Shown: positions 2,111 to 57,658, numbered from the stretch's first letter. The stretch: 64,000 nt of DNA from Candidatus Parcubacteria bacterium (GCA_039798445.1 JBDKFZ010000012.1:2407-66406), one strand, 5' to 3'. Notes: generated from the sequence alone by a model not told the origin. Made by a program: numbers and translations.

Positions 2111-5475
<3,365 letters not shown>

Positions 5476-7389: not shown

Positions 7390-7409
7390 GTAAAAATGAT
7401 TTTAGCAAC

Positions 7410-7444
7410 AACGAACTCCGCCCCAGACTGCGAGCGGAGTTCGT
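7410..7444. terminator. GC-rich 12-bp stem hairpin between the aroE-like stop and the convergent small ORF (weak U-run)
   Basis: aacgaactccgc-cccagactgcga-gcggagttcgtt. Confidence 0.4.
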
Positions 7445-7476
7445 TGCGCGCGTCGGTGGCGGAGTGATAGAGAAAG

Positions 7477-7683: not shown

Positions 7684-7752
7684 CGGCTTCTCCTCGGTAG
7701 GGTGTCCGTTGACGAGAGTATTCTCTCTTCAAACCTTTTGCAACTCCAAAAG

Positions 7753-7786
7753 AAAAACCTCCCCGAGATGGGGAGGTTTTTCTGAC
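7753..7786. terminator. bidirectional rho-independent terminator (downstream of the RRM gene)
   Basis: aaacctcccc-gagat-ggggaggttt flanked by A-runs and T-runs. Confidence 0.7.
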
Positions 7787-7804
7787 ACCGAGGTGTCCGG
7801 GATA

Positions 7805-8110
7805 TTACCAGCGGTTGCCGCTGTCGTATCCGCCGTTGTCGCGGCGAGGAGGACGCTCTGCCATTGGGCGAGCGACATTCACCGTGAGAGGACGACCATC
7901 GAAATCCTTCTCGTGGAACATTTCGATTGCCTTCTGTGCGTCTGCTTCAGACGACATCTGGACGAAACCGAAGCCTTTCGAGCGACCGGTCATCTTGTCC
8001 TTAATAATGGTTGCTGATGCAACCGCACCGGCCTGGCTAAAGTGGTCCGTGAGCGTCTGCTCAGTGGTACCGTAGCTCAAGTTTCCGACGTACAATTTTG
8101 CGTTATCCAT
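7805..8110 (-). CDS. RNA-binding protein with one RRM domain and a Gly/Arg-rich tail
   Basis: Contains RNP-2 KLYVGNLSY and RNP-1 RSKGFGFVQM. The first ATG giving MDNAKLYVGNL is at 8110; the ORF-track start at 8161 is probably an upstream extension. Confidence 0.8.
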   Translation of the reverse strand: MDNAKLYVGNLSYGTTEQTLTDHFSQAGAVASATIIKDKMTGRSKGFGFVQMSSEADAQKAIEMFHEKDFDGRPLTVNVARPMAERPPRRDNGGYDSGNRW

Positions 8111-8192
8111 ACTGCTTGTTATGTCCCATCCGCTTATCGCTTCAGGAGACCCTATAAACACTGACCAGAGTACCAGACTCTTGATAAAAAGT

Positions 8193-11100
8193 CTATAAAG
8201 TGCCCGCTTGGGTTTTTATAAGCTCCTGCAAGAGCTGTTTAAGGAGCTCTATGAGCTTGAGCTGGAGCTGTTCAAGTGGCGTCCCCGTGGCTGGTGGCAT
8301 TGTTTCTCCACTCCCACCTCCCCCGCTTCGTCGGTGTGAACCACTACTTCCACCATCATCTTCCTCGTCTTCAGCTGGTGGAGTTTCTTCTTCATTTATT
8401 TCTTCCCAAACAAAAACATCTGCAACCCCATTAGTATCTCCAATTACAAGGTTTGTGTTTGAAGAATAAAAGGAAACAACCGTGCCACCATCAGAAACAT
8501 CTGGATATGAAACAGATGCGCCACCATCCGCAATACCAACACCTTCTGTTATCAATAATTCAACATCCTCTTCTCTGTCGTAACGATATAAATGGAGATC
8601 TTCTCCGCCCTCATCATACGCCGTATAAAAAACATAACGCCCATCTGATGACACGGCCACACGACCGCTCACATATCCATTGCCTGTAACATAGTCATCA
8701 CCAATAAGTTCTGTTGTACCGAGAGTACGGTCTCGAAGAAAGACTGCTCCGCTTCCATTTACTTCATCAGCAGTTAGGTTTGTTGAATCAGACCAAAACA
8801 CAACGTAGCGGCCATCTTCGGAAATAGCTGGGGTTGTCGCCGAAGCGTCACCAGTCACTTCATCACTATCTACATCGACTTGTTCCGTTGTGTCACTTTC
8901 ACGGTCAAACAAAAATACGTTTGTAAGAGAGGTGTCATTATCAAACCGAACATACACAATATATCGGCCGTCGTTAGACAGTATTAGTTCATCCTCATTT
9001 GCATTCAAAAAATACTGATCCTCAGTATCAAAAGCAACTTCTCGGGTAATCGCTTCCATAGTTTGGTCGTAGACAAAAATATCAGTTTTTCCGTTAGTAT
9101 CCCCCACAACAAGATTGGTGGCCTGCGACGTGAACACAATGTAGCGACCATCCTCAGATAGTGCACTTCGTGCAGAATCACTATCTCCCTCTTCGCCTCC
9201 TTCGTTTTTACTTACAAATGTAAGTTCTTCTGTGTCACGATCATAGACAAAAACATTACTTACTCCAACCATATTCTCAGGAAGGAGAAGCCCTGAAGTT
9301 GAAAATAGAACAAAACGTCCATCGCCCGATATCTCTGGCTCCCCTGCATTTTCAACATTTTCTCCTCCCTCCCCATTCAAACTTACGCGCTTAACACTGT
9401 TAGCCTGTCGATCATAGACAAAAATATCGTATGTGCCATTGGTATCATCAGGAACCAAATTTGTTGCGACTGATTCGAAGACAACATAGCGGCCGTCGCT
9501 TGAAATTTTTGGATTTTGCGAAGTTCCGTCTCCCTCTTCTGCCCCATCACTTATACTTACTCGTTCAAAATCAAACGTTATTGCTGGAGCGGCTATGAAG
9601 TTCCATGTTGTTTCGTCTGCAATACCAGCAAAAAGATTTCCGGATTCATCTTCAATCGCAGTTGCGTCTATGTGGAAGTAGTAGTCCGTTTCATTCTCGA
9701 GTGTAACTGTTGGAAAAAGAGATACGAGTGTACTATCAACCGTCACAGCATCTCCATCAGTCACATCGAATGTCTCAACAACACTGTCATCACTTGTCTT
9801 AAATAAAGTGATATTGCCTGTTCCGGCAACGACGGTTTCACTAAAATATAAATCGAACTGAGAAATATCTATTGCGACACCCGTTTCGTCGTCTCCCGGA
9901 GTAAAGCCAACGGATGTTGGCACCGCATCTGACGTGAAATTCCATGTTGTTTCATCAGAGATACCCACAAAACCGTTCCCAACCAAATCTTCAACGGCCC
10001 CTATATCAATAAGGAAATAATACTCTGTTCCCAACTCAAGCGTCACCGATGGATCTATGACAAGCGTGTCTGTTCCCGAAAGAGAAACCAGTCCTCCTGC
10101 AATATCTATTGTCTCCACGACAGAATCATCGGATGCATCGTACAAAACAATATCCCCTGTTGATGTCGCAATGTCTTGTTCAAACGTAATAGAAAATGTC
10201 GCATCAAGACCAATTTCAATAGCACCGTCTGCTGGATCAAATGTCGTAATGTTTGGTATATCAGGATACATATACACGCGACCGTTGTTTACGTTCGCTA
10301 TCATAAAGGAACCATCTGCATCCAGTGCAACTGCGTTCCACCCCTTGTCGGTAGCCCCTGCAGGTTGTTGTTCTGTCCAATTCTCACCACTATCGTCCGA
10401 TGTATAGAGACGACCACTGCTCACAGCGGCTATCAAATGTGAGCCATCAGAATCGGATGCAACAGTGATCCATGACTTATTAACAGCCCCCGCAGGTTGA
10501 CGCTCTGTCCAATCTACCCCTCCGTTACTTGAAGTGTAGAGACGACCATTGCTCACGCTGGCTATCAAATTGGAACCATCGGCATCAGAGGCAACACCCC
10601 ACCACAATGTATCAACATCTCCCGCAGGTTGACGCTCTATCCAATCTACCCCTCCGTTACTTGAAGTGTAGAGACGTCCACCAAGTACGCCGGCTATCAA
10701 GTTAGAACCATCGGCATCAGAATCTACCGATCGCCATTCTCCGTTAACATCTCCCGCAGGTTGACGCTCTATCCAATCTACCCCTCCGTTACTTGAAGTG
10801 TAGAGACGACCATTGGTGGCTATCCCCGCAATAAGATTTGAGCCATCAGCGTCAGAAGCGGCATCCCACCATGATTTTGTGACATCGCCCGCAGGTTGAC
10901 GCTCTGTCCAACTTACCCCTCCGTCATCAGATGTATAGAGACGGCTGTTTTGACCTCCCACAATAAGGTTCGAACCGTCATCATCAGAATCCAAAGCTCT
11001 CCATGAGCCATCAAAATTCCCAATGGGCTGACGTTGCGTCCATGTGATCCCTCCATTACTTGATGTCCAAAGTCTTCCACCACCACCAGAAGCTCCAACA

Positions 11101-11267
11101 AAAAGGTTTGAACCATCGGCGTCTGACGCCGCAGCAGACCATCCGTAATTAGCCGCAAACCCTGTAGGGGTCACCTCCAGCCACGTGTCTGTCGCAAACA
11201 CCAAACTTGGCAATACAAGCGCAAGTATCAAAAAAGAAAAAGTGAGGAAAGAAAGTAGTTTTTTCAT
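8193..11267 (-). CDS. giant secreted surface protein P1 (1024 aa): signal peptide, BNR/Asp-box-like propeller, Big_5-like Ig domains, PD40/TolB-like repeats, shared C-terminal helix module (no peptidoglycan-binding domain)
   Basis: Signal peptide MKKLLSFLTFSFLILALVLPSLVFA. About 8 repeats of S-x-[DN]-G-G-[VI]-[DST]-W-x-ERQPAG, 3 Ig-like units ending ETTWNFT, and about 7 repeats of SxDGRYVVFxSxATNLVxxDTNGxxDIFVYD. Tail reads GSHRRSGGGGSG...LEQLQLKLIELLKQLLQELIKTQAGTL. Confidence 0.8.
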   Translation of the reverse strand: MKKLLSFLTFSFLILALVLPSLVFATDTWLEVTPTGFAANYGWSAAASDADGSNLFVGASGGGGRLWTSSNGGITWTQRQPIGNFDGSWRALDSDDDGSNLIVGGQNSRLYTSDDGGVSWTERQPAGDVTKSWWDAASDADGSNLIAGIATNGRLYTSSNGGVDWIERQPAGDVNGEWRSVDSDADGSNLIAGVLGGRLYTSSNGGVDWIERQPAGDVDTLWWGVASDADGSNLIASVSNGRLYTSSNGGVDWTERQPAGAVNKSWITVASDSDGSHLIAAVSSGRLYTSDDSGENWTEQQPAGATDKGWNAVALDADGSFMIANVNNGRVYMYPDIPNITTFDPADGAIEIGLDATFSITFEQDIATSTGDIVLYDASDDSVVETIDIAGGLVSLSGTDTLVIDPSVTLELGTEYYFLIDIGAVEDLVGNGFVGISDETTWNFTSDAVPTSVGFTPGDDETGVAIDISQFDLYFSETVVAGTGNITLFKTSDDSVVETFDVTDGDAVTVDSTLVSLFPTVTLENETDYYFHIDATAIEDESGNLFAGIADETTWNFIAAPAITFDFERVSISDGAEEGDGTSQNPKISSDGRYVVFESVATNLVPDDTNGTYDIFVYDRQANSVKRVSLNGEGGENVENAGEPEISGDGRFVLFSTSGLLLPENMVGVSNVFVYDRDTEELTFVSKNEGGEEGDSDSARSALSEDGRYIVFTSQATNLVVGDTNGKTDIFVYDQTMEAITREVAFDTEDQYFLNANEDELILSNDGRYIVYVRFDNDTSLTNVFLFDRESDTTEQVDVDSDEVTGDASATTPAISEDGRYVVFWSDSTNLTADEVNGSGAVFLRDRTLGTTELIGDDYVTGNGYVSGRVAVSSDGRYVFYTAYDEGGEDLHLYRYDREEDVELLITEGVGIADGGASVSYPDVSDGGTVVSFYSSNTNLVIGDTNGVADVFVWEEINEEETPPAEDEEDDGGSSGSHRRSGGGGSGETMPPATGTPLEQLQLKLIELLKQLLQELIKTQAGTL

Positions 11268-11299
11268 GCAGAAATTGGTACTGGGGGGGGCAATGAATC

Positions 11300-11310
11300 A
11301 GTATACCAAA
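11300..11310 (-). promoter_or_regulatory. extended -10 box TGGTATACT (minus strand) upstream of P1
   Basis: Plus strand reads agtataccaaa; on the coding strand this is tttGGTATACT, about 35 nt upstream of the ATG and directly downstream of the P2 terminator. Confidence 0.4.
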
Positions 11311-11314
11311 CAAA

Positions 11315-11333
11315 AACCGCCTATTGAGCGGTT
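11315..11333 (-). terminator. rho-independent terminator after P2
   Basis: aaccgc-ctattga-gcggtt followed by tttttgtttgg on the minus strand. Confidence 0.6.
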
Positions 11334-11372
11334 CTTGTGTCTTGGTTGCATCAGCCCCTGATATAGAAAGGC

Positions 11373-14096
11373 TTATCTCTGTGTCATCAATTCCTGCAAG
11401 AGCTGTTTAAGGAGGTCAATCAGCTTAAGTTGAAGCTGGATGAGAACGTTAGTGTCCCCATGGAATGACGGCGGGTTGCTGATAGGCTTCCGGTGGGAAC
11501 CGCTTCCGCTTCCCCCATTGTCATCGTCTTCGCCCTCTTCTTCCTCTTCCACTTCCTCTCCTACTTCAAGATCAAATGTCGCAGTGACACTCTGTGCCGC
11601 ACTCATCGTGACAACACATGTTCCCGTACCTGAACATCCACCTCCTGACCATCCTATGAAATCAGAACCATCTGCAGCAACCGCAGTAAGAGTCACCTCG
11701 GTATCTGCCGCATAGTCTTCTGTACAATCAACACCACAGTTGATACCCGATGGGGCTGACGTCACAGTTCCCGAACCCGTGCCATCTTTTGAGACGGTGA
11801 GCGTTTCGGTGCCACCTACACCAGTGTTAAAAAAGAACAACGTTGAGGTTCCACTGTTAATGTCGTAATTACCGACATACAACTCCGTGTCGTCCGCAGC
11901 CAAACCAAGACCGTACACATTCGCTGTACCCACAGGATCAAACGCCGTTGCCGTACCATCTGTTGTGTCGAACGCAGCGAGATAATCACGCGACGTACCA
12001 CTGTTCACATCCGCAAAATCTCCACCGGCATAGAGGAGCGCATCATCTGAAGAGAGTTCAAGCTTGAAGACTAGAGCGTCGGGAACTGGTATAAATGCTG
12101 TTATGAGTGAATTGTCAGACAAGTCGATTCCCAACAAATACGGTGCACTAATTGCTCCGTAGCTGGAGAATTCTCCTCCGACGTATACATCACCTGTTGA
12201 TGTTGAAACTGCCACCGTGTACGAAATGCCGTCAAAGTTTGGATTAAAACTTGTCGCCAACCCCGTAGTTACGTTGAGTTCTCCAAAATACCCCCGGGCT
12301 TCAGAACCAATGTCTGTGAAGTCTCCTACAACATAGAGTGTTGTCTCATCTGTAGAAAGCGCGGTTGAGTGTACGTGTTGTCCATTTCCAGTTACGGTCG
12401 CATCAAACGCAGAAACGAGGGAGCCGTCCGAGGTATCAAGTTTGGCCAAAGCCGTTCTACTTCCTCCACCAATAGTGGTGAACGAACCTCCGGCGTAGAT
12501 ACTTGTTTCATCCGGAGACAGCACAAACGTTCTTATAGTACCATCAGCGTTGGGATCAAACGCCGTTACGGTACCCGCACCGACAGTGGTAAATGCTCCG
12601 GCATTATTTCTTGCTGTTGCCGTTGCGTCGAACGATGTGAAGTCACCACCCATGTAGAGAGTTCCATCATCATCTGAAAGAGCGAGTGCCCGCACGGTGC
12701 TATCTGCATCTGGGTCAAATGCTGTTACAGTACCCGCACCAACGGTGGTGAATGCCCCCACATAGTTTCTAAATGTTGCTCCACCGTCGAACGTTCCAAA
12801 ATCACCTCCCATGTAGAGAGTTCCTCCGTCCGAGGAAAGTGCGAGTGCGAATACTGTCGCGCCCGCACTAGGATCAAAAGCCGTTACTGAACCGTCTGTT
12901 GTGTCGAATGCCGCCACGTAATCTCTTACTGTCCCGTTTTCAACGGAGTTAAACTGACCACCGGCATAGAGTGTTGATCCATCTGGAGATAGTGCAAGTG
13001 CGAACACTGTTGCGTTATCGATATCAGGGTCAAATGCAGAATCTAAAACACCAGACGACGTGATATGTGCAAGGCGTGGTTGTGTTGTTGTTCCAACGTT
13101 CGTAAAACTTCCACCGATATACCATCCCCCCTCACCATCTGGAACAGATGCGTATATTGTTGCCCCCGGACCTCCTAATGTTGAAACCTTTGGATACGCA
13201 ACTGATGCTTGTGTTACTTCATCAAACGGAACCCCTTCACCAGCAAGTGTTCTGAACTCAAGAAAGTTACCACCTACATACAACGTAGTGCCGTCCGAAG
13301 AGCGCGCAAGAACCTGCCCCGCAGCATCGAGAGCAGCATTAAAATTGGTTATATCACCGGTATCACTATCAAATTCGGCTATGTACTCTTGGGGCAAAAG
13401 CCCATTTACGGTCAAAAAATCCCCAGCAGCATACACCGTTGATTCATCTACTGACAATTTAATACTCCATACCGTACTATCAACATCTGGATTAAAGTCA
13501 GTTGCAACACCATCCACGGTCGTAAACCCGGCAATATAGTTTCGAGCCGTCCCGCTATTTACGTCAGTAAATGAACCCCCAGCAAAAAGCGTTGCGTCAT
13601 CAGAAGAAAGCGCTATCGTGTTTACCTCGCCGTTTGGATTTGGATTAAATGCTGTGGCATTACCTGTTGTTGTATCTATTGCTGCAAGGTTAAATCGCTC
13701 ACTTTCGAGACATGCGGCCTCAAACTCCCCGCCGATACACCAAAATGACCCTCCCATGTACAACGTAGAGCCGTCCGAAGAGAGTGCTAGAGATGTCACA
13801 CCCCCGTTAAGGTTCGGATCAAACCCTCCTATCAATGAACCGTCACTCACATCAAACGCCGCAAGATAGTTTCGTGCGGTTGAAAGAGGTTCCCCAACAG
13901 TCGGCGTGATTTGGGTAAAATTACCACCCACGTAGAGCGTGGTGCCATCAGAAACGACAGCGGCAATAGATCCATCGAATTCATACCTACTTTTCACTGC
14001 GTCCGGAATTGAATCAAGCGCAGGTGCGGCATGTACGAAAGAAGGCACCGATGTGAACACGAAGAGAAGCGCGATGAGAAAGAATAGTTTTTTCAT
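11373..14096 (-). CDS. giant secreted surface protein P2 (about 907 aa): signal peptide, about 16 delta-60-like ~50-aa propeller repeats, shared C-terminal SHRKP/helix module (no peptidoglycan-binding domain)
   Basis: Likely start MKKLFFLIALLFVFTSVPSFVHA at 14096 (ORF track starts at 14135). Repeats follow the pattern LALSxDGxTLYxGGxFTxVNGxxRNYxAAFDTxxGxxTAFxPNxN. Tail reads EEEEEGEDDDNGGSGSGSHRKPISNPPSFHGDTNVLIQLQLKLIDLLKQLLQELMTQR. Confidence 0.8.
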   Translation of the reverse strand: MKKLFFLIALLFVFTSVPSFVHAAPALDSIPDAVKSRYEFDGSIAAVVSDGTTLYVGGNFTQITPTVGEPLSTARNYLAAFDVSDGSLIGGFDPNLNGGVTSLALSSDGSTLYMGGSFWCIGGEFEAACLESERFNLAAIDTTTGNATAFNPNPNGEVNTIALSSDDATLFAGGSFTDVNSGTARNYIAGFTTVDGVATDFNPDVDSTVWSIKLSVDESTVYAAGDFLTVNGLLPQEYIAEFDSDTGDITNFNAALDAAGQVLARSSDGTTLYVGGNFLEFRTLAGEGVPFDEVTQASVAYPKVSTLGGPGATIYASVPDGEGGWYIGGSFTNVGTTTQPRLAHITSSGVLDSAFDPDIDNATVFALALSPDGSTLYAGGQFNSVENGTVRDYVAAFDTTDGSVTAFDPSAGATVFALALSSDGGTLYMGGDFGTFDGGATFRNYVGAFTTVGAGTVTAFDPDADSTVRALALSDDDGTLYMGGDFTSFDATATARNNAGAFTTVGAGTVTAFDPNADGTIRTFVLSPDETSIYAGGSFTTIGGGSRTALAKLDTSDGSLVSAFDATVTGNGQHVHSTALSTDETTLYVVGDFTDIGSEARGYFGELNVTTGLATSFNPNFDGISYTVAVSTSTGDVYVGGEFSSYGAISAPYLLGIDLSDNSLITAFIPVPDALVFKLELSSDDALLYAGGDFADVNSGTSRDYLAAFDTTDGTATAFDPVGTANVYGLGLAADDTELYVGNYDINSGTSTLFFFNTGVGGTETLTVSKDGTGSGTVTSAPSGINCGVDCTEDYAADTEVTLTAVAADGSDFIGWSGGGCSGTGTCVVTMSAAQSVTATFDLEVGEEVEEEEEGEDDDNGGSGSGSHRKPISNPPSFHGDTNVLIQLQLKLIDLLKQLLQELMTQR

Positions 14097-14126
14097 GAGA
14101 ATGATGAAGCTAAAAGAATGCCCAAA

Positions 14127-14138
14127 GTATAGCAAAAG
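14127..14138 (-). promoter_or_regulatory. extended -10-like box TGCTATACT upstream of P2
   Basis: Minus strand reads ttttGCTATACTttggg, about 25 nt upstream of ATG 14096, overlapping the P3 terminator T-run. Confidence 0.35.
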
Positions 14139-14159
14139 CCACGGATTCCCGTGGCTTTT
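14134..14159 (-). terminator. rho-independent terminator after P3
   Basis: aaaagccacgg-attc-ccgtggctttt. Confidence 0.65.
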
Positions 14160-14184
14160 GTGTGAATTGACTAGAATCTAATGT

Positions 14185-17100
14185 CTACAAACCGTTGATA
14201 TACGCCCTCGTCACTGGTCCGAAGTATCCAGCAGCTGGAGTGATACCGACAGATGCTTGGTATTCAGCAAGAGCTGCTTGGGTGAGAGGGCCGAAGAAGC
14301 CTGTTGCTCCAACTGCTGCAAGAGCTTGGGCTTGTGGTCCCTTGTTTTGAGCAATGAGGAAGAGTTGGAGTGCTGTTACGTCTGGTCCCTTACTATTGAG
14401 ATCGAGGTCGCGGGTGTAGATATCTGATGTGGTTGATGGGATGCCGAGAAGTGAAGCCAGTATCGCCTTGAGTTCTTCGATGCGGGCTTGGAGAGACTCG
14501 AGGAGAGTTGTGTCGTCACGGAACGACGGAGGATTGACGAGAGGCTTTCGGTGACTTCCGCTTCTGGTTTCCCCATCATCTTCAACTTCGTCCACGTCTT
14601 CTGAATCATAAATACCAAACCAACCAGACGATCCTCCTACATATAGTTCATCGCCATCAGGGTGAAGGGCCAACGCATACATGTAGTAGGCATCTGTGGG
14701 ATTGAAATCAAGAACACTGGCATTAGACGTCTGAATTGCAGCGAGATAATCACGCAACGCCCCTCCTTCAGAATTAAAACTTCCACCTGCATAGAGGACC
14801 TCATCGTCAGATGTGAGAGCGAGAGAATACACAGCACCGCCTTCCGCGAAATCTGGGTCAAAATCGAGAAGCCCAAGATCGGACGTTGAGAATGCTGCAA
14901 GACCAGCACGTGCACCACCCCCAGTTTCTAACACACGCAACACCCCTCCTCCTGCAAAGATATTTCCATTTACGGGACCACTGATGGTATATACATCGTA
15001 ACCAAAACTAGTATTAAGACGGGCACTGAATTCTGTGAGTGTTGCGTCACTCGTATTGAGTGCTACGAGACCGGCAACATTCTCACCACTTATGTTTGTA
15101 AAACCACCACCCGCATACAGAACGGACTCGTCAGAAGAAAGACTTAATGCATACACCGTAGAGTTGGCGTCGGGGGCAAAAGGCATTGCAAGACCGTCGT
15201 CTGTGTCGATTGCAGCAAGACGATAGCGCTCGCTTCCAAGACACACTTCCTCTTCGTCATCATACCCACCAACACAGTAGAAATCTCCTCCTGCAAACAA
15301 AACACTGTCATCATCCGAGAGTTCCAGTGAGTAGACGCTACTGTTCATATCAGGATTAAACGCAGTTGCAACGCTCGTTGTTTCTGTTGTATCAAGTGCT
15401 GCGAGATAGTTTCTATCCGCATTACATACTTCCAGACCCGAATCATATTCGACACAAGAGAAACTTCCTCCCACATACAATGTCAAATCATCAGAAGAAA
15501 GAGCAAGACTTGTGGCACCGTTATTTAGAGAGGGCGCAAAGTCTGTTGCAACTCCATCTGAGGTGTTGAATCCAGCGACGTGACCGCGATCTGTTGCGCC
15601 ATTAACTACTAGGAAGTTCCCCGCTGCGTAGAGTGTTGCCTCATCTGAACTTAGTTGAAGTGCGTATACGTCGCCATTCATGTCGGGATCAAAATTGGTC
15701 AGTGATCCATCACTCGTATCGAATGCGGCAAGACGATTTCTTGTTGTTGAGTTGATCGTTGTGAATTCTCCACCCGCGTAAAGCGTTTCTCCATCAGAAG
15801 AAAGTGCGAGGGCCCGAACTGTTCCCCCCTCAGAACCGAAGTCCGGCTCGAAGGTAGGATCGATAGTCATATCAGGAAGAATGTGTGCAATGCGCGAGTC
15901 CCATACTCCTCCATCTATACGGTTGAAGGACCCACCAGCATACCAACCACCGTTGCCGTCCGGGATAGATGCGTGGACTGTGCTTGCATTCGTCGAAAAA
16001 ATCGACTGTGAATCAACAAATGATCCTGTTGTGGCGTCAAAAATACCTCCCTCACCGATATTTATAAGGCCTGGTGTAAATTCAGTAAACTCACCTCCCG
16101 CATATAACGTCTCTCCGTCAGAGGAGAGTGTGAGGGCCCGAACCGTATCATCCGCTGGAAATTCTGTAGAAAGAAGGGTGGAACCGTCAGTGGTATCAAG
16201 TGCGACCAGTTTTTCTGTGAAGTCTCCACCAGCGTACAAACTGTTGCCATCAGACGAGAGTTTAAGTGCGCGAACCTCACCATCAAGTGAAGGAGTGAAC
16301 GCAATCTCCGCTCCTGTACCCGCGTCCATTTTTGCTACGTAATAAACGTCCCCGCCTACTCCCCATTCCTCAAAATCTCCACCGGCGTACACCGTTGAAC
16401 CATCAGAAGAGACAACAAGAGAATAAACCGTATATCCACCCCCCATATTGGGATTAAAATCCGTCATGACTCCATCAATTGTAGTGACCGCCGCAAGACT
16501 GTAACGATTACCTCCGATTCCATTTATTCCATTAAAAGCACCTCCAATATAGAGAGTCCCAGCATCTGGTGAGAGAGCGAGAGCATGCACCGACTGATCT
16601 ACTGAGACCACGTTTGGATTAAAATCAGTTAGTTCATACGTAGCAAGATCGATTGCAGCGACTTCACTTCGAGAAACACGATCTGCTTGTGTCATTGAAC
16701 CCCCTGCAAGCAACTGTCCATTCACAGAAGAAAGCGCGTAAACTGTACCATCGTAAAATCCACCACCAAAATCCTCTGCGGTCGCCGTGCCGTCAGAAAC
16801 TGCGAGTGCTGCGATTCTATTGCGTGTCGTTCCTCCATTAACCGCTGTAAATGACCCACCTGCGTAAAGTGTGGTCTCATCAGAAGAAAGTGCGAGTGAA
16901 TACACAAAACCAGCACCCACGTTTGGGTCAAATGCCTCTACAAGTGAGCCGTCGGTCGTATCAACTGCAGCAATTTTGTTACGTGTCGTGCCAGAATTAA
17001 CATCTGTAAACACTCCTCCTATATAGAGTGTCGAATCATCGTCTGAAAGAGCCATCGCAAGAATGTCATCATTAACATTTGGATCAAAGACAAGCTGACT

Positions 17101-17979
17101 TCCATCAGACGTGTCGAATGCAAAAAGCGCGTCATACCCATCACCTATCCCAAATTCCGTAGTACCACCCCCCACATACAATATGTCTCCGCCGGAAGAA
17201 AGGGCTAAAGAATTGGGGCGTGCAGGGAAAGTGATGTCCCCTCCAAAATCAACACCGGGAACAAGGGAGCCGTCTGTTGTATTAAGCGCGGCAAGACCAT
17301 ATGCAGATTGTCCATTAACCGAAACAAATGTTCCACCGACATACAATGTTTCTCCATCCGGAGAAAGCACAATCGCCTTAACAATATTGGTCAAGTTTGG
17401 ATTAAACGCTGTAAGTGTCCCATCTGATGTATTAATCGCTGCAAGACGATTTCGTGTCGTACCATTGATTTCAGAAAAATCACCTCCAACATAAAGTGTT
17501 TCACCGTCTGGTGAAAGAGCCAGGGCTAAAACCATATCTCCAAGAATAAATACGGGATCAAAATCGGTATCAATAGATCCATCAGAAAGCACGTGTGCAA
17601 GGGAGTAAAGGCTCTCTCCGTTTACTGTGTCAAAATCCCCACCGACATACCAGCCCCCAACCCCATCATCTGTAACAGCAAAAACTGTTTCTTCATCGCC
17701 TGGGGTCACTCTTTCAAATCTCGGGAACGTTTCCACTCGTTCTCCTGTTTCCTCAGTAAACAAAACTGCATTACCAACAATCTTCGAAACCTGAGAAAAA
17801 CTTCCGCCGAGATACAATGTGTCGCCATCAGTTACAACCACATTTATCTGATCACTAAACGTATACTTATTCTTTACTGCATCCAATGTTTCGGAGAGTG
17901 TTGGTGCTGCTTGCACAAAAAATGGTGCGATGACAAGCACAGCAAGGAGGGCGAAGATGGAACGATACAATGCCTTCAT
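14185..17979 (-). CDS. giant secreted surface protein P3 (about 1264 aa): signal peptide, about 22 delta-60-like propeller repeats, shared C-terminal linker module, C-terminal peptidoglycan-binding domain (PG_binding_1-like)
   Basis: Likely start MKALYRSIFALLAVLVIAPFFVQA at 17979 (ORF-track TTG at 18000). C-terminus reads DDGETRSGSHRKPLVNPPSFRDDTTLLESLQARIEELKAILASLLG then YTRDLDLNSKGPDVTALQLFLIAQNKGPQAQALAAVGATGFFGPLTQAALAEYQASVGITPAAGYFGPVTRAYINGL. Confidence 0.85.
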   Translation of the reverse strand: MKALYRSIFALLAVLVIAPFFVQAAPTLSETLDAVKNKYTFSDQINVVVTDGDTLYLGGSFSQVSKIVGNAVLFTEETGERVETFPRFERVTPGDEETVFAVTDDGVGGWYVGGDFDTVNGESLYSLAHVLSDGSIDTDFDPVFILGDMVLALALSPDGETLYVGGDFSEINGTTRNRLAAINTSDGTLTAFNPNLTNIVKAIVLSPDGETLYVGGTFVSVNGQSAYGLAALNTTDGSLVPGVDFGGDITFPARPNSLALSSGGDILYVGGGTTEFGIGDGYDALFAFDTSDGSQLVFDPNVNDDILAMALSDDDSTLYIGGVFTDVNSGTTRNKIAAVDTTDGSLVEAFDPNVGAGFVYSLALSSDETTLYAGGSFTAVNGGTTRNRIAALAVSDGTATAEDFGGGFYDGTVYALSSVNGQLLAGGSMTQADRVSRSEVAAIDLATYELTDFNPNVVSVDQSVHALALSPDAGTLYIGGAFNGINGIGGNRYSLAAVTTIDGVMTDFNPNMGGGYTVYSLVVSSDGSTVYAGGDFEEWGVGGDVYYVAKMDAGTGAEIAFTPSLDGEVRALKLSSDGNSLYAGGDFTEKLVALDTTDGSTLLSTEFPADDTVRALTLSSDGETLYAGGEFTEFTPGLINIGEGGIFDATTGSFVDSQSIFSTNASTVHASIPDGNGGWYAGGSFNRIDGGVWDSRIAHILPDMTIDPTFEPDFGSEGGTVRALALSSDGETLYAGGEFTTINSTTRNRLAAFDTSDGSLTNFDPDMNGDVYALQLSSDEATLYAAGNFLVVNGATDRGHVAGFNTSDGVATDFAPSLNNGATSLALSSDDLTLYVGGSFSCVEYDSGLEVCNADRNYLAALDTTETTSVATAFNPDMNSSVYSLELSDDDSVLFAGGDFYCVGGYDDEEEVCLGSERYRLAAIDTDDGLAMPFAPDANSTVYALSLSSDESVLYAGGGFTNISGENVAGLVALNTSDATLTEFSARLNTSFGYDVYTISGPVNGNIFAGGGVLRVLETGGGARAGLAAFSTSDLGLLDFDPDFAEGGAVYSLALTSDDEVLYAGGSFNSEGGALRDYLAAIQTSNASVLDFNPTDAYYMYALALHPDGDELYVGGSSGWFGIYDSEDVDEVEDDGETRSGSHRKPLVNPPSFRDDTTLLESLQARIEELKAILASLLGIPSTTSDIYTRDLDLNSKGPDVTALQLFLIAQNKGPQAQALAAVGATGFFGPLTQAALAEYQASVGITPAAGYFGPVTRAYINGL

Positions 17980-18007
17980 AGTTTCAGATGTTAATTTCAA
18001 TCCTCAA

Positions 18008-18020
18008 AGTATACCAAAAG
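18008..18020 (-). promoter_or_regulatory. extended -10 box TGGTATACT upstream of P3
   Basis: Minus strand reads cttttGGTATACTttgagg, about 30 nt upstream of ATG 17979. Confidence 0.4.
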
Positions 18021-18036
18021 CCACGGATCCCCATAG

Positions 18037-18064
18037 CAAAACCACCCCTGTTGGGGTGGTTTTG
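18037..18064 (-). terminator. rho-independent terminator after fusA
   Basis: aaaaccacccc-tgtt-ggggtggtttt. Confidence 0.7.
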
Positions 18065-18083
18065 GGCATCTTTTGAATTGAGA

Positions 18084-46637: not shown

Positions 46638-49600
46638 CTAAAGACTATTTACGTATGCCCTCGTTACCGGCCCAAAGAATCCTACAGCAGGAGTGATACC
46701 GACAGGTGCTTGGTATTCAGCCAAAGCTGCTTGTGTAAGAGGTCCAAAGAAGCCTGTGGCTCCGTTTGAGGCGAGCGATTGTGCTGCGGGTCCCTTGTTC
46801 TGTGTCATGAGGAAGAGCTGGAGCTGGAGGACATCGTCCCCTTGTGCACCGAGATCGAGGTCACGGGTGTAGAGGTTGGATGTTGTCGTTGGAGTGCCGA
46901 GGAATGCGAGCATTGCTGGTGACGGGGTGCCGCCTTGTGCGATGAATTGGGTAATGAGGGTGCGGAGAAGGGTGAGAAGGTCGGAGCTTCCGCCTGTTGT
47001 TCCTGAACCACCGCCGCGACGATGAGATGAGCTTCCTCCCCCGTCTTCTTCCTCTTCATCATCGGCTGGCGGGGTTTCTTCTTCAACAACCTCTTCCCAA
47101 ACGAAGACGTCCGTCGAACTATTTGTATCACCCGTAACAAGGTTTGTTGCGTCAGAAACAAAACCTATGATTAAACCGTCATTTGAAATTGCTGGGCTGT
47201 CTGAATATCCACTCCCATCAGAGTTCGACGAGCCCTCAGTTATGTACAGCAATGTGTCTGTTGTACGGTCATATCGATAGACACCCGCATAGTCCCCCTC
47301 TCCATCATCCGTAGTTTGACCGAACGCAACATAGCGACCATCGGCAGAAATGACAGGTGCGTAAGAGGAGTCAGCGTCATCATTTGTAATACGTTCCATC
47401 ACTCCTGTCTCCCTATCAAGCACGAATACATCTTGAACGCCCTCTGTATCATCAGAAACTAGATTGTCTGCGTTGGATGAAAACGCAACATAGCGACCAT
47501 CGGCAGAAATTGCCACACCTCCTCCCGCGATATCACTATTTCCCTCCTCGTCCAAGTCATTTTTATCAACCATCTCCACAGTATCCGCATCTCTGTCATA
47601 CACATACAGGTGGTTATATCCTTCAATGGCTTCCGGCACAAGCAGACCACTCGTACTAAAGGTCACAAAGTTCCCGTTGCCTGATATTCGGACGGCACCT
47701 TGAACGTTTTCTGTGTTTTCTCCTCCTTCATCATCAAGACTCACCCGTTCAATAGTATCGGTGTCACGATCGTAGACAAAAGCATCACTTCTGCTATTTG
47801 TATCATCCGTAACAAGGTTTGTCGCATCGGAGTAAAAAGCGACATAACGACCATCGTTAGAAAGAATAGGATCATATGAAGCCCCATCCCCTTCCTGACC
47901 AAGGTCATTGAGACTTACGCGCTCAACCGTATCAGTGTCACGATCGTACACAAAAACATCGAAGGTATCATTGGTGTCATCGGGGATAAGGTTCGTCGTA
48001 GCTGAACGAAAAGCTACATACCTACCGTCAGATGAGATGCTCGGGGTCTGTGAATTACTGTCTCCTTCCTCACCAAGGTCGCTCACACTTACCCGTTCAA
48101 TGGTGTCTAAATCACGATCGTAGACAAAGACATCGTCCCATCCGTTTGTGTCATCCGAAACAAGATTGGTTGCTCCTGAACTAAAGACGACATACCTGCC
48201 ATCTGTCGAAAGGGAAACATTGAATCCTGTGGAATCGCCCTCTTCACCTTCGTTGTTTACGTTCACACGTTCAAAATCAAGTGCGGGTGGTGCTGGAACA
48301 TCTTGTACCGTAAAGTTCCATGTTGTTTCGTCCGCAATTCCAACATACGAGTTACCAGTACCATCCACAAAAGCTCCCTCGTCAATTAGCAGGTAATACG
48401 CCGTGGCATATTCAAGATCGACGTCTTGATATATGTAGACGTTTTCATCCTCGGCCTCAAGAGCATCGGCATCCGTCACGTCAAAAGTGGCGACAGTGCT
48501 GTCATCAGAAACTTTTTTAAGGGTTATGTTTCCTGTTCCAACAACGACATCTTGATCAAAAACAATCGTTGGGGTACCTCCCGAAAAAACAGTTATCGAA
48601 ACGTCTTCAGCATCATCTGCGGGTGAAAACGTTTCGACCACAGGAGGTGCATCTGTCGTAAAACTCCACTGTGTTTCATCCGAAATCCCAACAAACGGAG
48701 CGCCCCCATCATCTTCGATTGCTCCTGTATCAATGAGCACGTAATATTCTGTTGCCTCTTCGAGATCCGCATCTAAATCAATCTCCAACGTTGTAGTATC
48801 GGAGAGCGTAGCTTTTGGACCGGCAACATCTACTGTTTCGACCAGACTATCGTCGCTTGCTTTGTGAATTGTTATATTTCCCGTTGTTGTCGCAATGTCT
48901 TTATTAAAAACAAGAGTGAGGTTTGTGCCTACAACAACCTCTCTGGCGTTGTCTGAAGGTGTAAAACTGTCTAATACAATTGGCTCTGGTGTTACATACA
49001 ACCCACCCTCGACAGTAGCAACAATAAGATTCGAGCCGTCGGCGTCTGAAGCAACAGCCTGCCAAGCATAGCTATTGACACCTCCCGGCTGTTCTTCAAA
49101 CCACGTATCTCCACCGTCGTCAGAAGAATGTAGACTTCCTCCATTTACCCCCGCAAGCAAATTTGTACCAGTATCATCGGAAGCAACTGACCCCCAACCT
49201 TCAGTCGGAAAACCTGTGGGTTGACGCTCCATCCAGTTTGCACCACCATCACTTGATGTATATACAAGAGTGTTTCCTCCGGCAACGATGAGATTCGAAC
49301 CATCGGCGTCGGAGGCAACCTTGTCCCAGTTTTTTTCGGTGTCACCGGCAGGTCGACGCTCTACCCATGTATCTCCTCCATCGTCGGAGACATAAATAAA
49401 CCCATTAAACGTACCGATAATGAGCACAGAACCATCCGCATCTGAATCAACAGATATGATATTTATCTGTGTCGAAGTTGCAGTATGTTCTTCCCATGTA
49501 TCTCCGCCGTCGAAAGACGTATAGATAGTACTAGTTGCGCTTGTAACAGCGGCGAGATTCGAGCCATCGGCGTCTGAAGCAATACCCGTCCAATATTCAA

Positions 49601-49970
49601 CTGCACCACTGCTTGGATCAAGTGCGCTCCACGTCTCTCCACTATCCTCTGATCTATAGAGAAGGCCTGAGGCCCCGCCCCCTACAAGTAAGTTGGTTCC
49701 AGTAGAGTCTGATTTGACACTACGTGCTCCGTTCCCTGATGGACCCACAAGGTGTTCGGCCCATATTCCCCCAAAGTCGTGTGAAATGAAAATACTATTT
49801 GTTGAATTTCCTGCAATAAGATTTGAACCGTCGGCGTCTGAGGCAACAGCTCTCCATGCAGTTGAGGCATCTGTAGTAAACCATTCGTGAGATGCAGCAA
49901 ACACCGGCGTCACTTGGAGGAGAAGTGCGACGGTTGCGAGAGTTGCAGCGAATTTGCGGAGTAGTTTCAT
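46638..49970 (-). CDS. giant secreted surface protein P4 (about 1110 aa): signal peptide, BNR/Asp-box-like propeller, Big_5-like Ig domains, PD40-like repeats, shared C-terminal module, peptidoglycan-binding domain
   Basis: Likely start MKLLRKFAATLATVALLLQVTPVFA at 49970. Tail EEEEDGGGSSSHRRGGGSG...LLTLLRTLITQFIAQGGTPSPAMLAFLG...YTRDLDLGAQGDDVLQLQLFLMTQNKGPAAQSLASNGATGFFGPLTQAALAEYQAPVGITPAVGFFGPVTRAYVNSL. Confidence 0.85.
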   Translation of the reverse strand: MKLLRKFAATLATVALLLQVTPVFAASHEWFTTDASTAWRAVASDADGSNLIAGNSTNSIFISHDFGGIWAEHLVGPSGNGARSVKSDSTGTNLLVGGGASGLLYRSEDSGETWSALDPSSGAVEYWTGIASDADGSNLAAVTSATSTIYTSFDGGDTWEEHTATSTQINIISVDSDADGSVLIIGTFNGFIYVSDDGGDTWVERRPAGDTEKNWDKVASDADGSNLIVAGGNTLVYTSSDGGANWMERQPTGFPTEGWGSVASDDTGTNLLAGVNGGSLHSSDDGGDTWFEEQPGGVNSYAWQAVASDADGSNLIVATVEGGLYVTPEPIVLDSFTPSDNAREVVVGTNLTLVFNKDIATTTGNITIHKASDDSLVETVDVAGPKATLSDTTTLEIDLDADLEEATEYYVLIDTGAIEDDGGAPFVGISDETQWSFTTDAPPVVETFSPADDAEDVSITVFSGGTPTIVFDQDVVVGTGNITLKKVSDDSTVATFDVTDADALEAEDENVYIYQDVDLEYATAYYLLIDEGAFVDGTGNSYVGIADETTWNFTVQDVPAPPALDFERVNVNNEGEEGDSTGFNVSLSTDGRYVVFSSGATNLVSDDTNGWDDVFVYDRDLDTIERVSVSDLGEEGDSNSQTPSISSDGRYVAFRSATTNLIPDDTNDTFDVFVYDRDTDTVERVSLNDLGQEGDGASYDPILSNDGRYVAFYSDATNLVTDDTNSRSDAFVYDRDTDTIERVSLDDEGGENTENVQGAVRISGNGNFVTFSTSGLLVPEAIEGYNHLYVYDRDADTVEMVDKNDLDEEGNSDIAGGGVAISADGRYVAFSSNADNLVSDDTEGVQDVFVLDRETGVMERITNDDADSSYAPVISADGRYVAFGQTTDDGEGDYAGVYRYDRTTDTLLYITEGSSNSDGSGYSDSPAISNDGLIIGFVSDATNLVTGDTNSSTDVFVWEEVVEEETPPADDEEEEDGGGSSSHRRGGGSGTTGGSSDLLTLLRTLITQFIAQGGTPSPAMLAFLGTPTTTSNLYTRDLDLGAQGDDVLQLQLFLMTQNKGPAAQSLASNGATGFFGPLTQAALAEYQAPVGITPAVGFFGPVTRAYVNSL

Positions 49971-49998
49971 GTAATGGGAGCTAAAAACAATATCAAAA

Positions 49999-50010
49999 GT
50001 ATACCAAAAA
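49999..50010 (-). promoter_or_regulatory. extended -10 box TGGTATACT upstream of P4
   Basis: Minus strand reads gggtttttGGTATACTtttgatatt, about 30 nt upstream of ATG 49970. Confidence 0.4.
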
Positions 50011-50043
50011 CCCCTCAACTCTTTGGTTTTTGGGGATTACTCT

Positions 50044-53000
50044 CTAGAGTCCATTAATATGCGCCCTCGTCACTGGTCCAAAGTACCCTGCTGCTGGGGT
50101 GATGCCGACAGATAGCTGGTATTCAGCAAGAGCCGCTTGGGTGAGAGGTCCAAAAAGGCCTGTGGCTCCAACGACTGCAAGTGCTTGAGCCTGTGGTCCT
50201 TTGTTTTGAGCGATGAGGAAGAGTTGGAGTGCTGTTACGTCAGAGCCTTCGCTGTTGATGTCGAGATCGCGGGTGTATGTGCCTCCTGTAGTTGCTGGAG
50301 CACCAAGGAATGCGAGCATCGCTGGTGATGGGGTGCCACCTTGTGCGATGAATTGGGTGATGAGGGAGCGGAGGAGAGCAAGAAGATCTTGTGATGTGCC
50401 GCCTGAAGCAGGAGCAACTCCACGTCCTCGGTGAGAAGAGCTGCTGCCTCCCCCACTGTCGCCGTTGTCGTCATCATCGTCATCGTCACCAGAAGGAATC
50501 TCGTCTTCAATCAGTGTGTAGATAGCCAGTCCACCCGTGAAGGCTCCGCCGGCATAGAGTTCAGACTGGTCTGGCGAAAGAATGAGAGTGTTAACAGAAC
50601 TATCGATATCATCCACAGAAGGGCTGAAATCGCTTACCTCACCCGTCGCACTATTTACACTAGCGATTCTGAGTCGATCCAAACCATCGATTTGAGTGAA
50701 GTCACCACCAACGTAAAGAGTTGATCCATCGGAACTCAAATCGAGCCCTCGCACAGTGCTGTCGGGGTTAGGAGCAAAAGCGGTGGCAATACTATCGGCA
50801 ATGGTAAACTCTGCGAGATAATTACGTGTGGCATCTCCCCCGTTTACATCTCCAAAGTCTCCACCGGCAAAAACGGTTGATTCATCAAGAGAGAGCTTGA
50901 GAGCCCTCACTGTGCCATCAACATCCGGATTGAATGCTGTTACTGCACCATCTGCAGTTGTAAATGATGCAAGACGGCTGCGAGAGGCGGCACCGTTGTT
51001 GACTGTCGTGAACGCTCCTCCGGCATAGAGAACTGATTCGTCTGCAGAAAGCTCGAGAGAATTCACTGTCGAGCTCATATTCGGGTTGAATGCCGTCACA
51101 ACACCGTCCACCGTTGTGAATGCAGCGATACGCCTGCGCGATGTGCCTCCATTCACCGTCTGGAAGCTTCCTCCTGCATAGAGGATGCTGTCATCAGAAG
51201 AGAGCTTGAGGGCGTTCACCGTGCTGGCCATATTCGGATTAAACGCTGTTACAACTCCGTCCACGGTCGTAAACGCAGCAAGACGGTTTCGAGTTGTTCC
51301 AAGACACCCCCCTTCACCATCAAATATCCCATTTACACAGATAAACGTCCCGCCAACATAGAGCGTTAGTCCATCAGAAGAGAGTGCCAGCGCATTAACG
51401 GTATTGTTTATATCTGGATCAAAAGGCAAAAGAGTGTACGACGAGAGATCAATTGCGGCTACGTTATGACGAGTAGAAGCACCCGCCGCGGTGAAACTAC
51501 CACCGATATAAACGACACCATCCGCGACATCCGCCGCAGCCACACCTCCGTTCAGAGCAGGATCAAAATCTGTAACATTACTTGTAGCTAAATCAAACTC
51601 AGCAAATCCAGCTCGAGGTATATCACCATTCACCGTAGTCAGCTCTCCTACCGCATACAGCGTCAAACCATCCGAAGAAAAATCCATTCCACTTACTCTC
51701 CCTCCAGTAATATCAGGATCGAAATCAGTAGCGATACTAGTTGTTACATCAACAGCCGCAACTCCATTTCGGATTGTCCCCCCATTCACATCTCCAAACG
51801 TACCTCCAACATAAAGCGTCTCTCCATCAGGAGAAAGGAGAAGAGAGTACACACTGCCGTTAACGTTGGGGTCAAAATCAGTAGCGATACCCGTTGTAGC
51901 ATCAACAGCTGCGACACCGTTCCGCTCGACATATTCTGAAAGACTAAATGATCCACCGATATACAGTGCTGTACCATCTACGGCAATCTCAGAAATTCCT
52001 GAGTTTGAACCTGTAAAACCCGGGTCAAAATCAGTGACTAACGATGTTGTCGTATCAAACGCCGCGATACCAAGTCGCTCAACGTCATCATTTACCATGC
52101 TTATATTTCCTCCGACATACACCAGAGAACCGTCTTCCGAAAGGGCAATACTTGTTACAGAGTCGAACTCACTAATACCGGCGTCAAAACTCGTTACCGT
52201 TCCTGTCGTTGCATCGAATGCAGCAAGACGATTGCGTGTAGTTCCGCCATTCACTGTACTGAAATACCCTCCCGCATACACCACCGATCCATCTACGGCT
52301 ATTTCGTTAATCGTATCATTAACATTGGGGTTGAAAGCAGTTACCTCTCCTGTCGTTGCATCAAACGATGCAAATCTGTTGCGTGTTGTGTCTCCATTCA
52401 CTTCAGTAAAATCTCCGCTGATGTATACGACTGAACCTGCGAGCACCATACTACTACCAGCTTGGAATGAGTCTCCAAGATCTGGATCAAAAGAAGTCGC
52501 AACGCTGGTATCTGTGTCAAAAGCCGCTGCTCCATGTCGAGTCGTTGCTCCGTTTACCGTCTGGAAGTTTCCTGTCACGTACAAAGTTCCATCATCGGGA
52601 GAAAGTGCAATAGCATTAGCGCCCCCTTCTATGTTTGGATCAAAGTCTGTAGCAACACCTGTTTCTGTGTAGAAAGCGGCAACTTTATTTCGAGTGGTTG
52701 CGCCCCCGTTAACCGTAGAGAAGTATCCTCCCGCGTACAAAATCTCTCCATCCGAAGAAAGCGCCAATGAAATCACTGAGCTATCCAAATCTGGATCAAA
52801 GTTGGGGTCGACAGTGCCATCTGCGAGTATGTGGGCTAGACGATTACGCGCGGTGTTTTGAGCGGTCAAATTTGTAAAGTTTCCTCCGACATACCAACCG
52901 CCGTCTCCATCAGAAACAGCGACCGCCGGGTTGCCCCCATTGACTGTCGGCAACAAACTTTTTTGTTCGGCAGTCGTATCAAAAATGAATTCTTGAGCAT

Positions 53001-55470: not shown

Positions 55471-55501
55471 AAAATAAATGGAGGTTAATTACAATATCAA
55501 A

Positions 55502-55515
55502 AGTATACCAAAAAA
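55502..55515 (-). promoter_or_regulatory. extended -10 box TGGTATACT upstream of P5
   Basis: Minus strand reads gggttttttGGTATACTtttgatattg, about 32 nt upstream of ATG 55470. Confidence 0.4.
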
Positions 55516-55547
55516 CCCTCGACTGTCTGAGTTTTTTGGGGATTCTG

Positions 55548-57587: not shown

Positions 57588-57602
57588 GACTTCAGAGCCC
57601 TC

Positions 57603-57614
57603 AGTATAGCAAAA
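57603..57614 (-). promoter_or_regulatory. extended -10-like box TGCTATACT upstream of P6
   Basis: Minus strand reads ggttttGCTATACTgagggc, 18 nt upstream of ATG 57587, directly after the P7 terminator hairpin. Confidence 0.35.
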
Positions 57615-57634
57615 CCACGGATTTCCGTGGTTTT
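57611..57634 (-). terminator. rho-independent terminator after P7
   Basis: aaaaccacgg-atttc-cgtggtttt. Confidence 0.65.
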
Positions 57635-57658
57635 GTGAGGATTGGTCGAAGCCAACGT

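Follow-up and report, generated by a model that had tools for sequence, protein, structure and literature searches.

In a 64,000-nucleotide stretch of a Candidatus Parcubacteria genome (GCA_039798445.1, JBDKFZ010000012.1:2407-66406; hereafter the window), one family of seven paralogous proteins, P1 to P7, uses two C-terminal solutions side by side: a predicted murein-binding domain, the peptidoglycan-binding domain (PGBD), in P3 to P7, and a short conserved terminal helix in P1 and P2. Far from being a truncation artefact, the helix-only ending is a real alternative module at the C-terminus, one that is maintained by selection and recurs. Patescibacteria (the Candidate Phyla Radiation) live attached to other microbes, and the ways in which they mount and exchange surface proteins are largely unexplored. 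In that setting a terminal helix that is both conserved and portable offers a concrete lead open to testing, for which we propose a mechanism in conditional terms below.

The shared C-terminal cassette and its two endings

The source is a metagenome-assembled genome of an uncultured organism, in which P1, P2 and P3 match the deposited proteins RLY47_322, RLY47_323 and RLY47_324 at 100% on an 85-kb contig. Read along the minus strand, the genes are rpsG, fusA (18084-20231), P3, P2, P1 and one for an RNA-binding protein with an RNA recognition motif (RRM; 7805-8110). The features that bear on the two endings are as follows.

8193..11267, minus strand: P1 gene (RLY47_322, 1024 aa), encoding a signal peptide, a BNR/Sortilin-type propeller, two Big_5 Ig-like domains, PD40 repeats and a helix-ending C-terminal cassette without PGBD (open reading frame, Pfam, 100% match to the deposited protein)
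8208..8276, minus strand: Leu-rich terminal helix of P1, LEQLQLKLIELLKQLLQELIKTQ, with AGTL and then the stop codon (8193-8195) after it (sequence; profile matches; hydrophobic moment 0.45-0.51)
8328..8339, minus strand: P1 S-H-R-R basic motif after acidic and Gly/Ser runs (regular-expression scan, seven-paralog alignment)
11373..14096, minus strand: P2 gene (RLY47_323, 907 aa), encoding a signal peptide, tandem DUF5122/Rax2 beta-propellers, an InlB-B-like (Flg_new_2) domain, a disordered linker and a terminal helix, without PGBD (open reading frame, Pfam, AlphaFold2)
11379..11453, minus strand: terminal helix of P2, TNVLIQLQLKLIDLLKQLLQELMTQ, with a single R before the stop codon at 11373-11375 (sequence, AlphaFold2 model)
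11487..11498, minus strand: P2 S-H-R-K motif, followed by PISNPPSFHGDT, the pre-helix spacer as in P3 and P7 (regular-expression scan, alignment)
14185..17979, minus strand: P3 gene (RLY47_324, 1264 aa), encoding a signal peptide, DUF5122/Rax2 propellers and the full cassette, helix plus PGBD (open reading frame, Pfam, deposited protein)
14188..14412, minus strand: P3 peptidoglycan-binding domain, PG_binding_1 fold (Pfam, AlphaFold2, Foldseek)
14449..14514, minus strand: P3 pre-PGBD helix LLESLQARIEELKAILASLL (AlphaFold2 of the last 130 aa: helix at 22-43 with a predicted local distance difference test score, pLDDT, of ~62-68, and a low-confidence linker before the PGBD)
46638..60310, minus strand: array of P4-P7, the second of this family, each of the four with cassette and PGBD (Pfam, tblastn, BLASTP)

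Alignment of the C-termini places a collinear cassette at the end of all seven paralogs. It comprises an acidic run, a Gly/Ser run, the motif S-[ST]-H-R-[KR] (SSRK in P6), a spacer of 10-25 residues, which reads PISNPPSF-x-DT in P2, P3 and P7, and a Leu-rich helix of 22-25 residues. In P3-P7 the helix gives way to a short linker and then a PGBD of ~75 residues, with 66-90% identity among the paralogs (71-87% for P3 versus P4-P7), whereas P1 ends four residues, and P2 one to three residues, past the helix. A preliminary description of this DNA had assigned P1-P3 to the same family as P4-P7, quoted the C-terminal sequences of P1 and P2, and credited P3 with a full C-terminal module including the PGBD. 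The quoted sequences are exact, P3 has the cassette, the helix and the PG_binding_1 fold, and the family assignment is borne out by common ectodomain modules as well as by the cassette in all seven.

The scores of the PGBDs against the PG_binding_1 model (PF01471; cut-off 23 bits) fall below the cut-off in P3 (21.4), P5 (21.0) and P7 (18.6) and above it in P6 (28.0); the PGBD of P4 goes unreported by Pfam, yet shares 76-90% identity with its counterparts in P3 and P7. The AlphaFold2 model of the P3 C-terminus matches the three-helix-bundle fold of PGBDs, with a pLDDT of at least 90 across residues 56-130, and Foldseek relates it with probability 1.0 to the N-domain of SleB (6tci; TM-score 0.76, root mean square deviation 2.2 Å, 76 columns), to 5tv7, to the AP3 endolysin (5nm7) and to phiKZ gp144 (3bkh). 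The helix lies behind a disordered linker in the model of P2 and apart from the PGBD in that of P3, and on these models would be a structurally independent element.

A transmembrane or LPXTG sorting signal was also considered for P1-P7 and is rejected: the C-terminal 140 residues contain no transmembrane segment (maximum 19-residue Kyte-Doolittle average 0.96-1.50, below 1.6) and the LPx[TSA]G motif is absent from all seven proteins. The sorting-domain models of NCBIfam have no match in P1-P7, and no Pfam or NCBIfam model matched the stalk cassette or the helix-only terminus. Full-text searches of a paper library likewise turned up no relevant account of a C-terminal tail of this helix type on surface proteins of Patescibacteria.

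The helix-only ending is genuine

Because the sequence derives from a metagenome-assembled genome, a frameshift, an assembly error or a recent pseudogenisation could in principle hide, or have removed, a PGBD at the ends of P1 and P2. A tblastn search of the five PGBDs against the window in all frames (E<=10) returned exactly five copies, those of P3-P7, and none near either stop in any frame; Pfam finds no match in P1 or P2, and D2, the DNA repeat family that corresponds to the PGBD, likewise counts five members. Just 105 bp, including a terminator, separate the P2 stop from the P1 start, and the RRM-protein gene begins 82 bp past the P1 stop; there is therefore no room for a hidden domain. 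The same stops recur in other, independent assemblies, and when 1.84 billion representative proteins were searched with a profile built from the P1/P2-type tail, all 15 matches (E<=1e-3) ended no more than four residues from the C-terminus. Frameshift and sequencing error are rejected on the all-frame search, the intergenic lengths and the independent orthologues, and we regard an artefactual origin of either end as extremely improbable. The earlier claims that P1 and P2 truly lack the domain, and that the DNA downstream contains no PGBD-like sequence, thus stand.

The preliminary description had proposed a comparison with orthologous loci, and orthologues from independent assemblies do have the same helix-only stop (L004, L009/L010, L012, P0002 and P0023). 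For instance, L004 (GCA_020049755.1) has the order fusA-P3'-P2'-P1'-RRM, with a PGBD in P3' and the same terminal helix at the ends of P2' and P1'. In L009/L010 a PGBD protein is followed by a P2-like helix-only protein and then the RRM gene, and in L012 a P1-like helix-only protein precedes the RRM gene and the dehydrogenase gene that the window also has. Among metagenome contigs scanned with the tail alignment, a degenerate pattern that saturates, L012 was the one locus confirmed; a scan of genome contigs with P2 returned distant propeller proteins only, the source genome lying outside the species representatives scanned. Among the retrieved homologues, ~34 end in such a helix and ~22 in helix plus PGBD, by a manual count, an automated regular-expression census of tail classes having given false positives as well as false negatives and proved unreliable.

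Selection on the helix and exchange of tails

Despite their unrelated ectodomains, P1 and P2 have helices that are identical at 16 of 17 residues, the polar K/Q/E positions included. Across the corresponding 17 codons the proportion of synonymous differences (pS) is 0.64, with synonymous sites near saturation, while the proportion of nonsynonymous differences (pN) is 0.05; the helix is therefore under purifying selection. Recent gene conversion, which might otherwise produce near-identical helices, is rejected on the same synonymous divergence. Invariant and near-invariant columns of the tail alignment include Q, K and Q.

The 15 profile matches sit on PD40, DUF5122, BNR plus Big_5, SpaA_2 and DUF5011 architectures, together with one protein of 177 aa, a distribution that makes the tail a portable module. 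The ending differs among orthologues of P2: P0003, which is 80% identical, carries a P4/5/7-type helix with PGBD, P0007 has a P3-type tail with PGBD, and P0004 ends in a different helix-only type. In essence, tails are exchanged between orthologues. The helix types are discrete and are common to neighbouring, unrelated proteins within one genome. In the window type A occurs twice, and in L011 LMEQLINVLQQYLALLLAAKGQQ stands beside LMEKLVALLMQYLQLLLAAKGQ on neighbouring proteins of a single helix type.

Two further observations concern the mobility of these elements. At L011 12791-14650, a 619-aa secreted protein without a Pfam domain has a run of 13 glycines and then the helix-only tail type of its neighbour P0004, so that the tail occurs on an entirely unrelated protein. 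P2-like orthologues, moreover, are found at varied sites (L007 744-3737, L011 10001-12658, L005/L006 10001-12964), either near rpmE-prfA-rpsB-tsf or directly after fusA; since they carry different tails at these different sites, gene position and tail are both mobile among relatives.

The duplications themselves look old. Between paralogous PGBD modules, synonymous divergence (dS) is 0.8-2.4 and nonsynonymous divergence (dN) 0.05-0.19, which supports an ancient origin, and the fusA-P3-P2-P1-RRM order is kept in the related genome of L004; the earlier preference for ancient duplication over a single recent island is upheld on both counts. Comparison of window positions 7805-20231 with L004 positions 1-11906 gives amino-acid identities of 100% for the C-terminus of EF-G, 93.6% for P3, 73.5% for P2 and ~50% for P1 (1024 versus 1271 aa, a rearranged length), and by eye the RRM protein of L004 matches the window translation. 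Divergence that rises so steeply across the array marks a fast-evolving, hypervariable surface locus amid conserved housekeeping genes.

What the terminal helix may do

We infer the surface location of these proteins, their binding to murein and the role of the helix from sequence and predicted structure. The reading we favour, at a probability of roughly 0.45, is that the terminal helix may be a lineage-specific protein–protein docking or oligomerisation tag, of coiled-coil type, that keeps the ectodomain on the cell. P3, P2 and P1 would encode Sec-exported, modular, adhesin-like surface proteins built of beta-propellers and Ig-like domains. The PG_binding_1 domain of P3-P7 would presumably bind murein non-covalently, and the terminal helix would hold its ectodomain on the cell through a conserved partner, possibly the stalk helices of wall-bound paralogs or some other receptor. 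One cell would then show directly wall-bound and piggy-backed propeller proteins together.

The pattern of conservation speaks for docking: polar helix positions are maintained under strong purifying selection across unrelated ectodomains, and such selection on specific polar residues, combined with discrete helix types shared within a genome, favours specific recognition. So, too, does composition. Across the set the helices are rich in Leu, Gln, Glu and Lys, carry net charges of -3 to +1 and contain few aromatic residues; a near-neutral or negative charge with few aromatics is more in keeping with a coiled coil than with a helix that binds lipid.

Several points weigh against a docking tag. 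The partner is hypothetical, and the helices of the PGBD-bearing paralogs in the window differ in sequence type from that of P1 and P2, such that a simple heteromeric zipper between the two groups does not suggest itself. In length the helix amounts to only about three heptads, and it offers no single clean a/d register: the best periodicity angle was 98-108 degrees and a/d hydrophobic occupancy 0.62-0.75, with no unique register. The AlphaFold2 models are of single chains and blind to oligomerisation. The hydrophobic moments of helix-only tails (0.46-0.59) exceed those of pre-PGBD helices (0.27-0.38) and resemble that of the PBP5 membrane anchor (0.50), which favours a membrane anchor instead. 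Finally, that P1 and P2 persist on the cell at all is something we infer.

The last of the measured properties leads to a serious candidate, albeit an unlikely one, namely an in-plane membrane anchor similar to that of PBP5. Here the helix, once exported, would rest in the cytoplasmic membrane's outer leaflet, and the 50-70 residue acidic/Gly-rich linker would run through the wall. Not only are the hydrophobic moments of the helix-only tails in the range of PBP5, but the terminal position of the helix, the fitting length of the disordered linker and the basic HRK/HRR motif upstream of the helix would all suit such an arrangement. The P1 and P2 helices themselves have moments of 0.49-0.51, a net charge of 0 to +1 and no aromatic residues. 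Lipid binding is harder to reconcile with a helix charge that is about zero or negative across the set and with the scarcity of Trp, Tyr or other aromatic interface residues, and lipid binding alone would not need conserved polar positions or discrete, lineage-specific types. Moreover, the amphipathicity that the preliminary description ascribed to both helices holds for P1, where 317 of 20,000 shuffles reach the observed moment; the full P2 helix is only weakly above shuffles (3523 of 20,000), so that the shuffle test is significant for P1 alone.

A bolder form of the docking hypothesis draws on analogy with dockerins, and we hold it to be doubtful. The tail could be a previously undescribed, lineage-specific 'address tag' of Parcubacteria, docking interchangeable propeller and Ig-like adhesins onto a common wall- or membrane-bound receptor, with tail types co-evolving with that receptor. 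Were this so, host-dependent cells could swap their surface repertoire by exchanging tails.

Also unlikely is that P1 and P2 are released as soluble proteins that diffuse or act at a distance, the helix serving self-oligomerisation alone or being a remnant of the stalk. Neither protein has a recognisable wall or membrane anchor domain, a transmembrane segment or an LPXTG motif, and orthologues that alternate PGBD and helix-only tails imply that the PGBD is dispensable. A vestigial helix, however, would not show the contrast between pN and pS seen here, nor stay last on many unrelated ectodomains, and retention of a long stalk-like linker makes more sense for a tethered protein. The earlier suggestion of anchored and possibly released or alternatively attached forms is thus compatible with the data, short of proof, and purifying selection on the helix favours alternative attachment over a simple loss of the anchor.

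Lastly, the PGBD could be directed at the wall of the host, or act as a targeting domain of the lytic-enzyme type, in which case all seven paralogs would attach to their own cell by the helix, and P1 and P2 would lack host-murein binding. The helix cassette is indeed the sole C-terminal element common to all seven, and PGBD proteins of Ca. Paceibacteria have been proposed to take part in host attachment (PMC10936435). We nonetheless consider this improbable, since the PGBD lies at the end of the stalk, distal to the ectodomains and past a long linker, which is the usual topology of a self-wall anchor, and some reported hosts of the group are archaea without murein.

What follows from the helix depends on which of these roles it has. 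As a docking or anchoring tag it would provide a handle for finding the surface proteome of uncultured Patescibacteria by sequence alone; if it is a mere oligomerisation helix on released proteins, the result amounts to a modest refinement of annotation.

Relation to known systems

The PGBD-bearing members have clear counterparts. Secreted PG_binding_1 proteins of Patescibacteria and Paceibacteria resemble P3-P7 in joining adhesin-like domains to a signal peptide and, at the C-terminus, to a PGBD of three helices, and in co-cultures of Ca. Paceibacteria signal-peptide PGBD proteins were among the most highly expressed genes (PMC10936435). SleB, CwlC-type hydrolases and phage endolysins share the PGBD fold of P3-P7, but P3-P7 contain no hydrolase domain. 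Relative to known PGBD proteins, P1 and P2 stand apart in lacking the domain, and P3-P7 in that their PGBD is preceded by the conserved acidic/Gly/HRK/helix stalk.

For the terminal helix, the parallels are partial. Low-molecular-weight penicillin-binding proteins, exemplified by PBP5 and PBP6 of Escherichia coli, use a C-terminal amphipathic helix as a membrane anchor; like the tails described here, they are Sec-exported, their last ~20 residues form an amphipathic helix of similar hydrophobic moment, and they have no transmembrane segment. The present tails differ in being Leu/Gln/Glu/Lys-rich, near-neutral and aromatic-poor, in falling into discrete lineage types and in following a long low-complexity stalk, and the two, which have no sequence homology, are alike by functional analogy only.

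Dockerin–cohesin and WxL/Csc-type systems are surface complexes of Gram-positive bacteria. They offer a functional analogy, in that some members of an array are wall-binding while others have a short C-terminal module able to dock, and the tail is modular; domains of the dockerin, cohesin, WxL or SLH type are absent here, however, and the tag consists of one helix. The tripartite end, in which the short motif S-x-H-R-K/R leads through a spacer to a helix rich in hydrophobic residues, also recalls sorting signals such as LPXTG/sortase, PEP-CTERM, GlyGly-CTERM and PGF-CTERM, from which it differs in having no transmembrane segment or known motif and in that motif and helix also occur internally, before a PGBD. 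The ectodomain and PGBD families are known, then, and the comparison points to the helix-only terminus as the new element, apparently a second C-terminal solution among the wall-associated surface proteins of Patescibacteria.

Ectodomains and paralogy

By profile, P1-P3 have ectodomains like those of DUF5122/delta-60, BNR/Sortilin and PD40 (TolB-like) propeller surface proteins. In P1, Pfam reports two copies of Big_5 (78.2 bits, cut-off 23.6) and PD40 (47.5 bits, cut-off 20.9); Sortilin-Vps10 is borderline at 32.1 bits against a cut-off of 33 and reaches 47.7 in the paralog P4. DUF5122 (PF17164, the delta-60 repeat) scores 45.7 bits in P2 and 64 bits in P3, against a cut-off of 27, and a scan with NCBIfam added nothing specific. 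The AlphaFold2 model of P2 has tandem propellers at ~35-757 (pLDDT 80-95) and then a small domain of poor model quality; a disordered linker at 845-881 (pLDDT ~30) leads to the helix at 882-906. Foldseek comparison of this model with the PDB returned generic WD40-like multi-propeller proteins only, and no functional lead. These propeller families are generic binding scaffolds that imply no enzymatic function, and names of the Rax2 and Ycf48 type rest on blade similarity alone.

BLASTP relates the two arrays through shared segments. P1 aligns with P4 over nearly its full length (44.6% identity over 965 aa), its N-terminal half with P5 at 54% and its C-terminal part with P7 at 40.5%, in agreement with the resemblance to P4 and P7 noted in the preliminary description. 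P2 and P3 are 35-36% identical to P5 across residues 572-1808; the likeness to P5 that had been noted is therefore real, but the region is the C-terminal two thirds of P5 and not its centre. The family is a mosaic of a few ectodomain modules. All seven paralogs have hydrophobic, signal-like N-terminal segments. At 900-1800 aa they are large proteins, and the term 'giant' that had been applied to them does not hold.

The BNR blade repeat of P1 is a tandem repeat of 132 nt at 10267-10950, in which adjacent units reach 80% nucleotide identity. As this is above the identity between paralogs, it suggests relatively recent duplication or homogenisation of blades. A diversity-generating retroelement and near-identical DNA repeats were sought as sources of variability and none was found, the direct repeats being protein-blade repeats of 60-86% identity.

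One member of the second array merits separate mention. P6 (55548-57587) has an N-terminal stretch of 320 aa (56628-57587) without a Pfam match, in which GDSGQPG recalls the active-site motif of chymotrypsin-type serine proteases, and a P6-like protein with a PGBD is also found in L011 (5700-7712).

Locus and genome context

A mechanical list of open reading frames gave P2 as 11373-14135 and P3 as 14185-18000, with both starts slightly too far upstream; the likely true starts, 14096 for P2 (MKKLFF) and 17979 for P3 (MKALYR), agree with the deposited proteins and with gene calls on a related contig. The intergenic regions contain the following elements.

11300..11308, minus strand: TGGTATACT, extended -10-like element upstream of P1, a putative promoter (read in the sequence; same motif class before P2 and P3)
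11315..11333, minus strand: intrinsic terminator after P2, AACCGC...GCGGTT and then a U-tract (intergenic RNA fold -33.6 kcal/mol, z -3.57)
14126-14134, minus strand: TGCTATACT motif, extended -10-like, after the P3 terminator and upstream of P2 (read in the sequence)
14133..14160, minus strand: intrinsic terminator after P3 (fold z -3.71)
18008-18016, minus strand: TGGTATACT upstream of P3, after the fusA hairpins (read in the sequence)
18008..18064, minus strand: double terminator hairpin downstream of fusA (folding energy -42 kcal/mol, z -6.05)

The preliminary description had terminators following directly on both P1 and P2. Strong terminators, each a hairpin with a U-tract, do follow fusA, P3 and P2, and the statement is correct for P2. 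The hairpin after P1 is weak; it has no U-tract, and its fold is no stabler than that of shuffled sequences (z -0.06). A terminator hairpin with TGGTATACT or TGCTATACT within a few bases precedes P3, P2 and P1 alike, and resembles a reused terminator-plus-extended -10 unit. Given terminators that are followed by extended -10-like motifs, the three genes look like separate transcription units; a consensus promoter scan did not report the TGGTATACT/TGCTATACT sites ahead of P3, P2 and P1.

Directly downstream of P1, the RRM gene encodes a 101-aa RNA-binding protein with a single RRM, and it holds the same position in L004, L009 and L012. The 28 kb that separate the two arrays are not housekeeping alone, but include type IV pilus and competence genes, which are relevant to host attachment: a PilB-like T2SSE ATPase (39556-41418), a PilC-like T2SSF protein (38202-39464) and a 607-aa protein with a CarboxypepD_reg domain, in a region cited as 36318-41418, as well as ComEC (26202-27689). 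A DsbB-family gene lies at 45263-45817, just downstream of the second array, and P2, P3, P5 and P6 have 3-6 cysteines; extracytoplasmic disulfide formation may therefore matter for this family.

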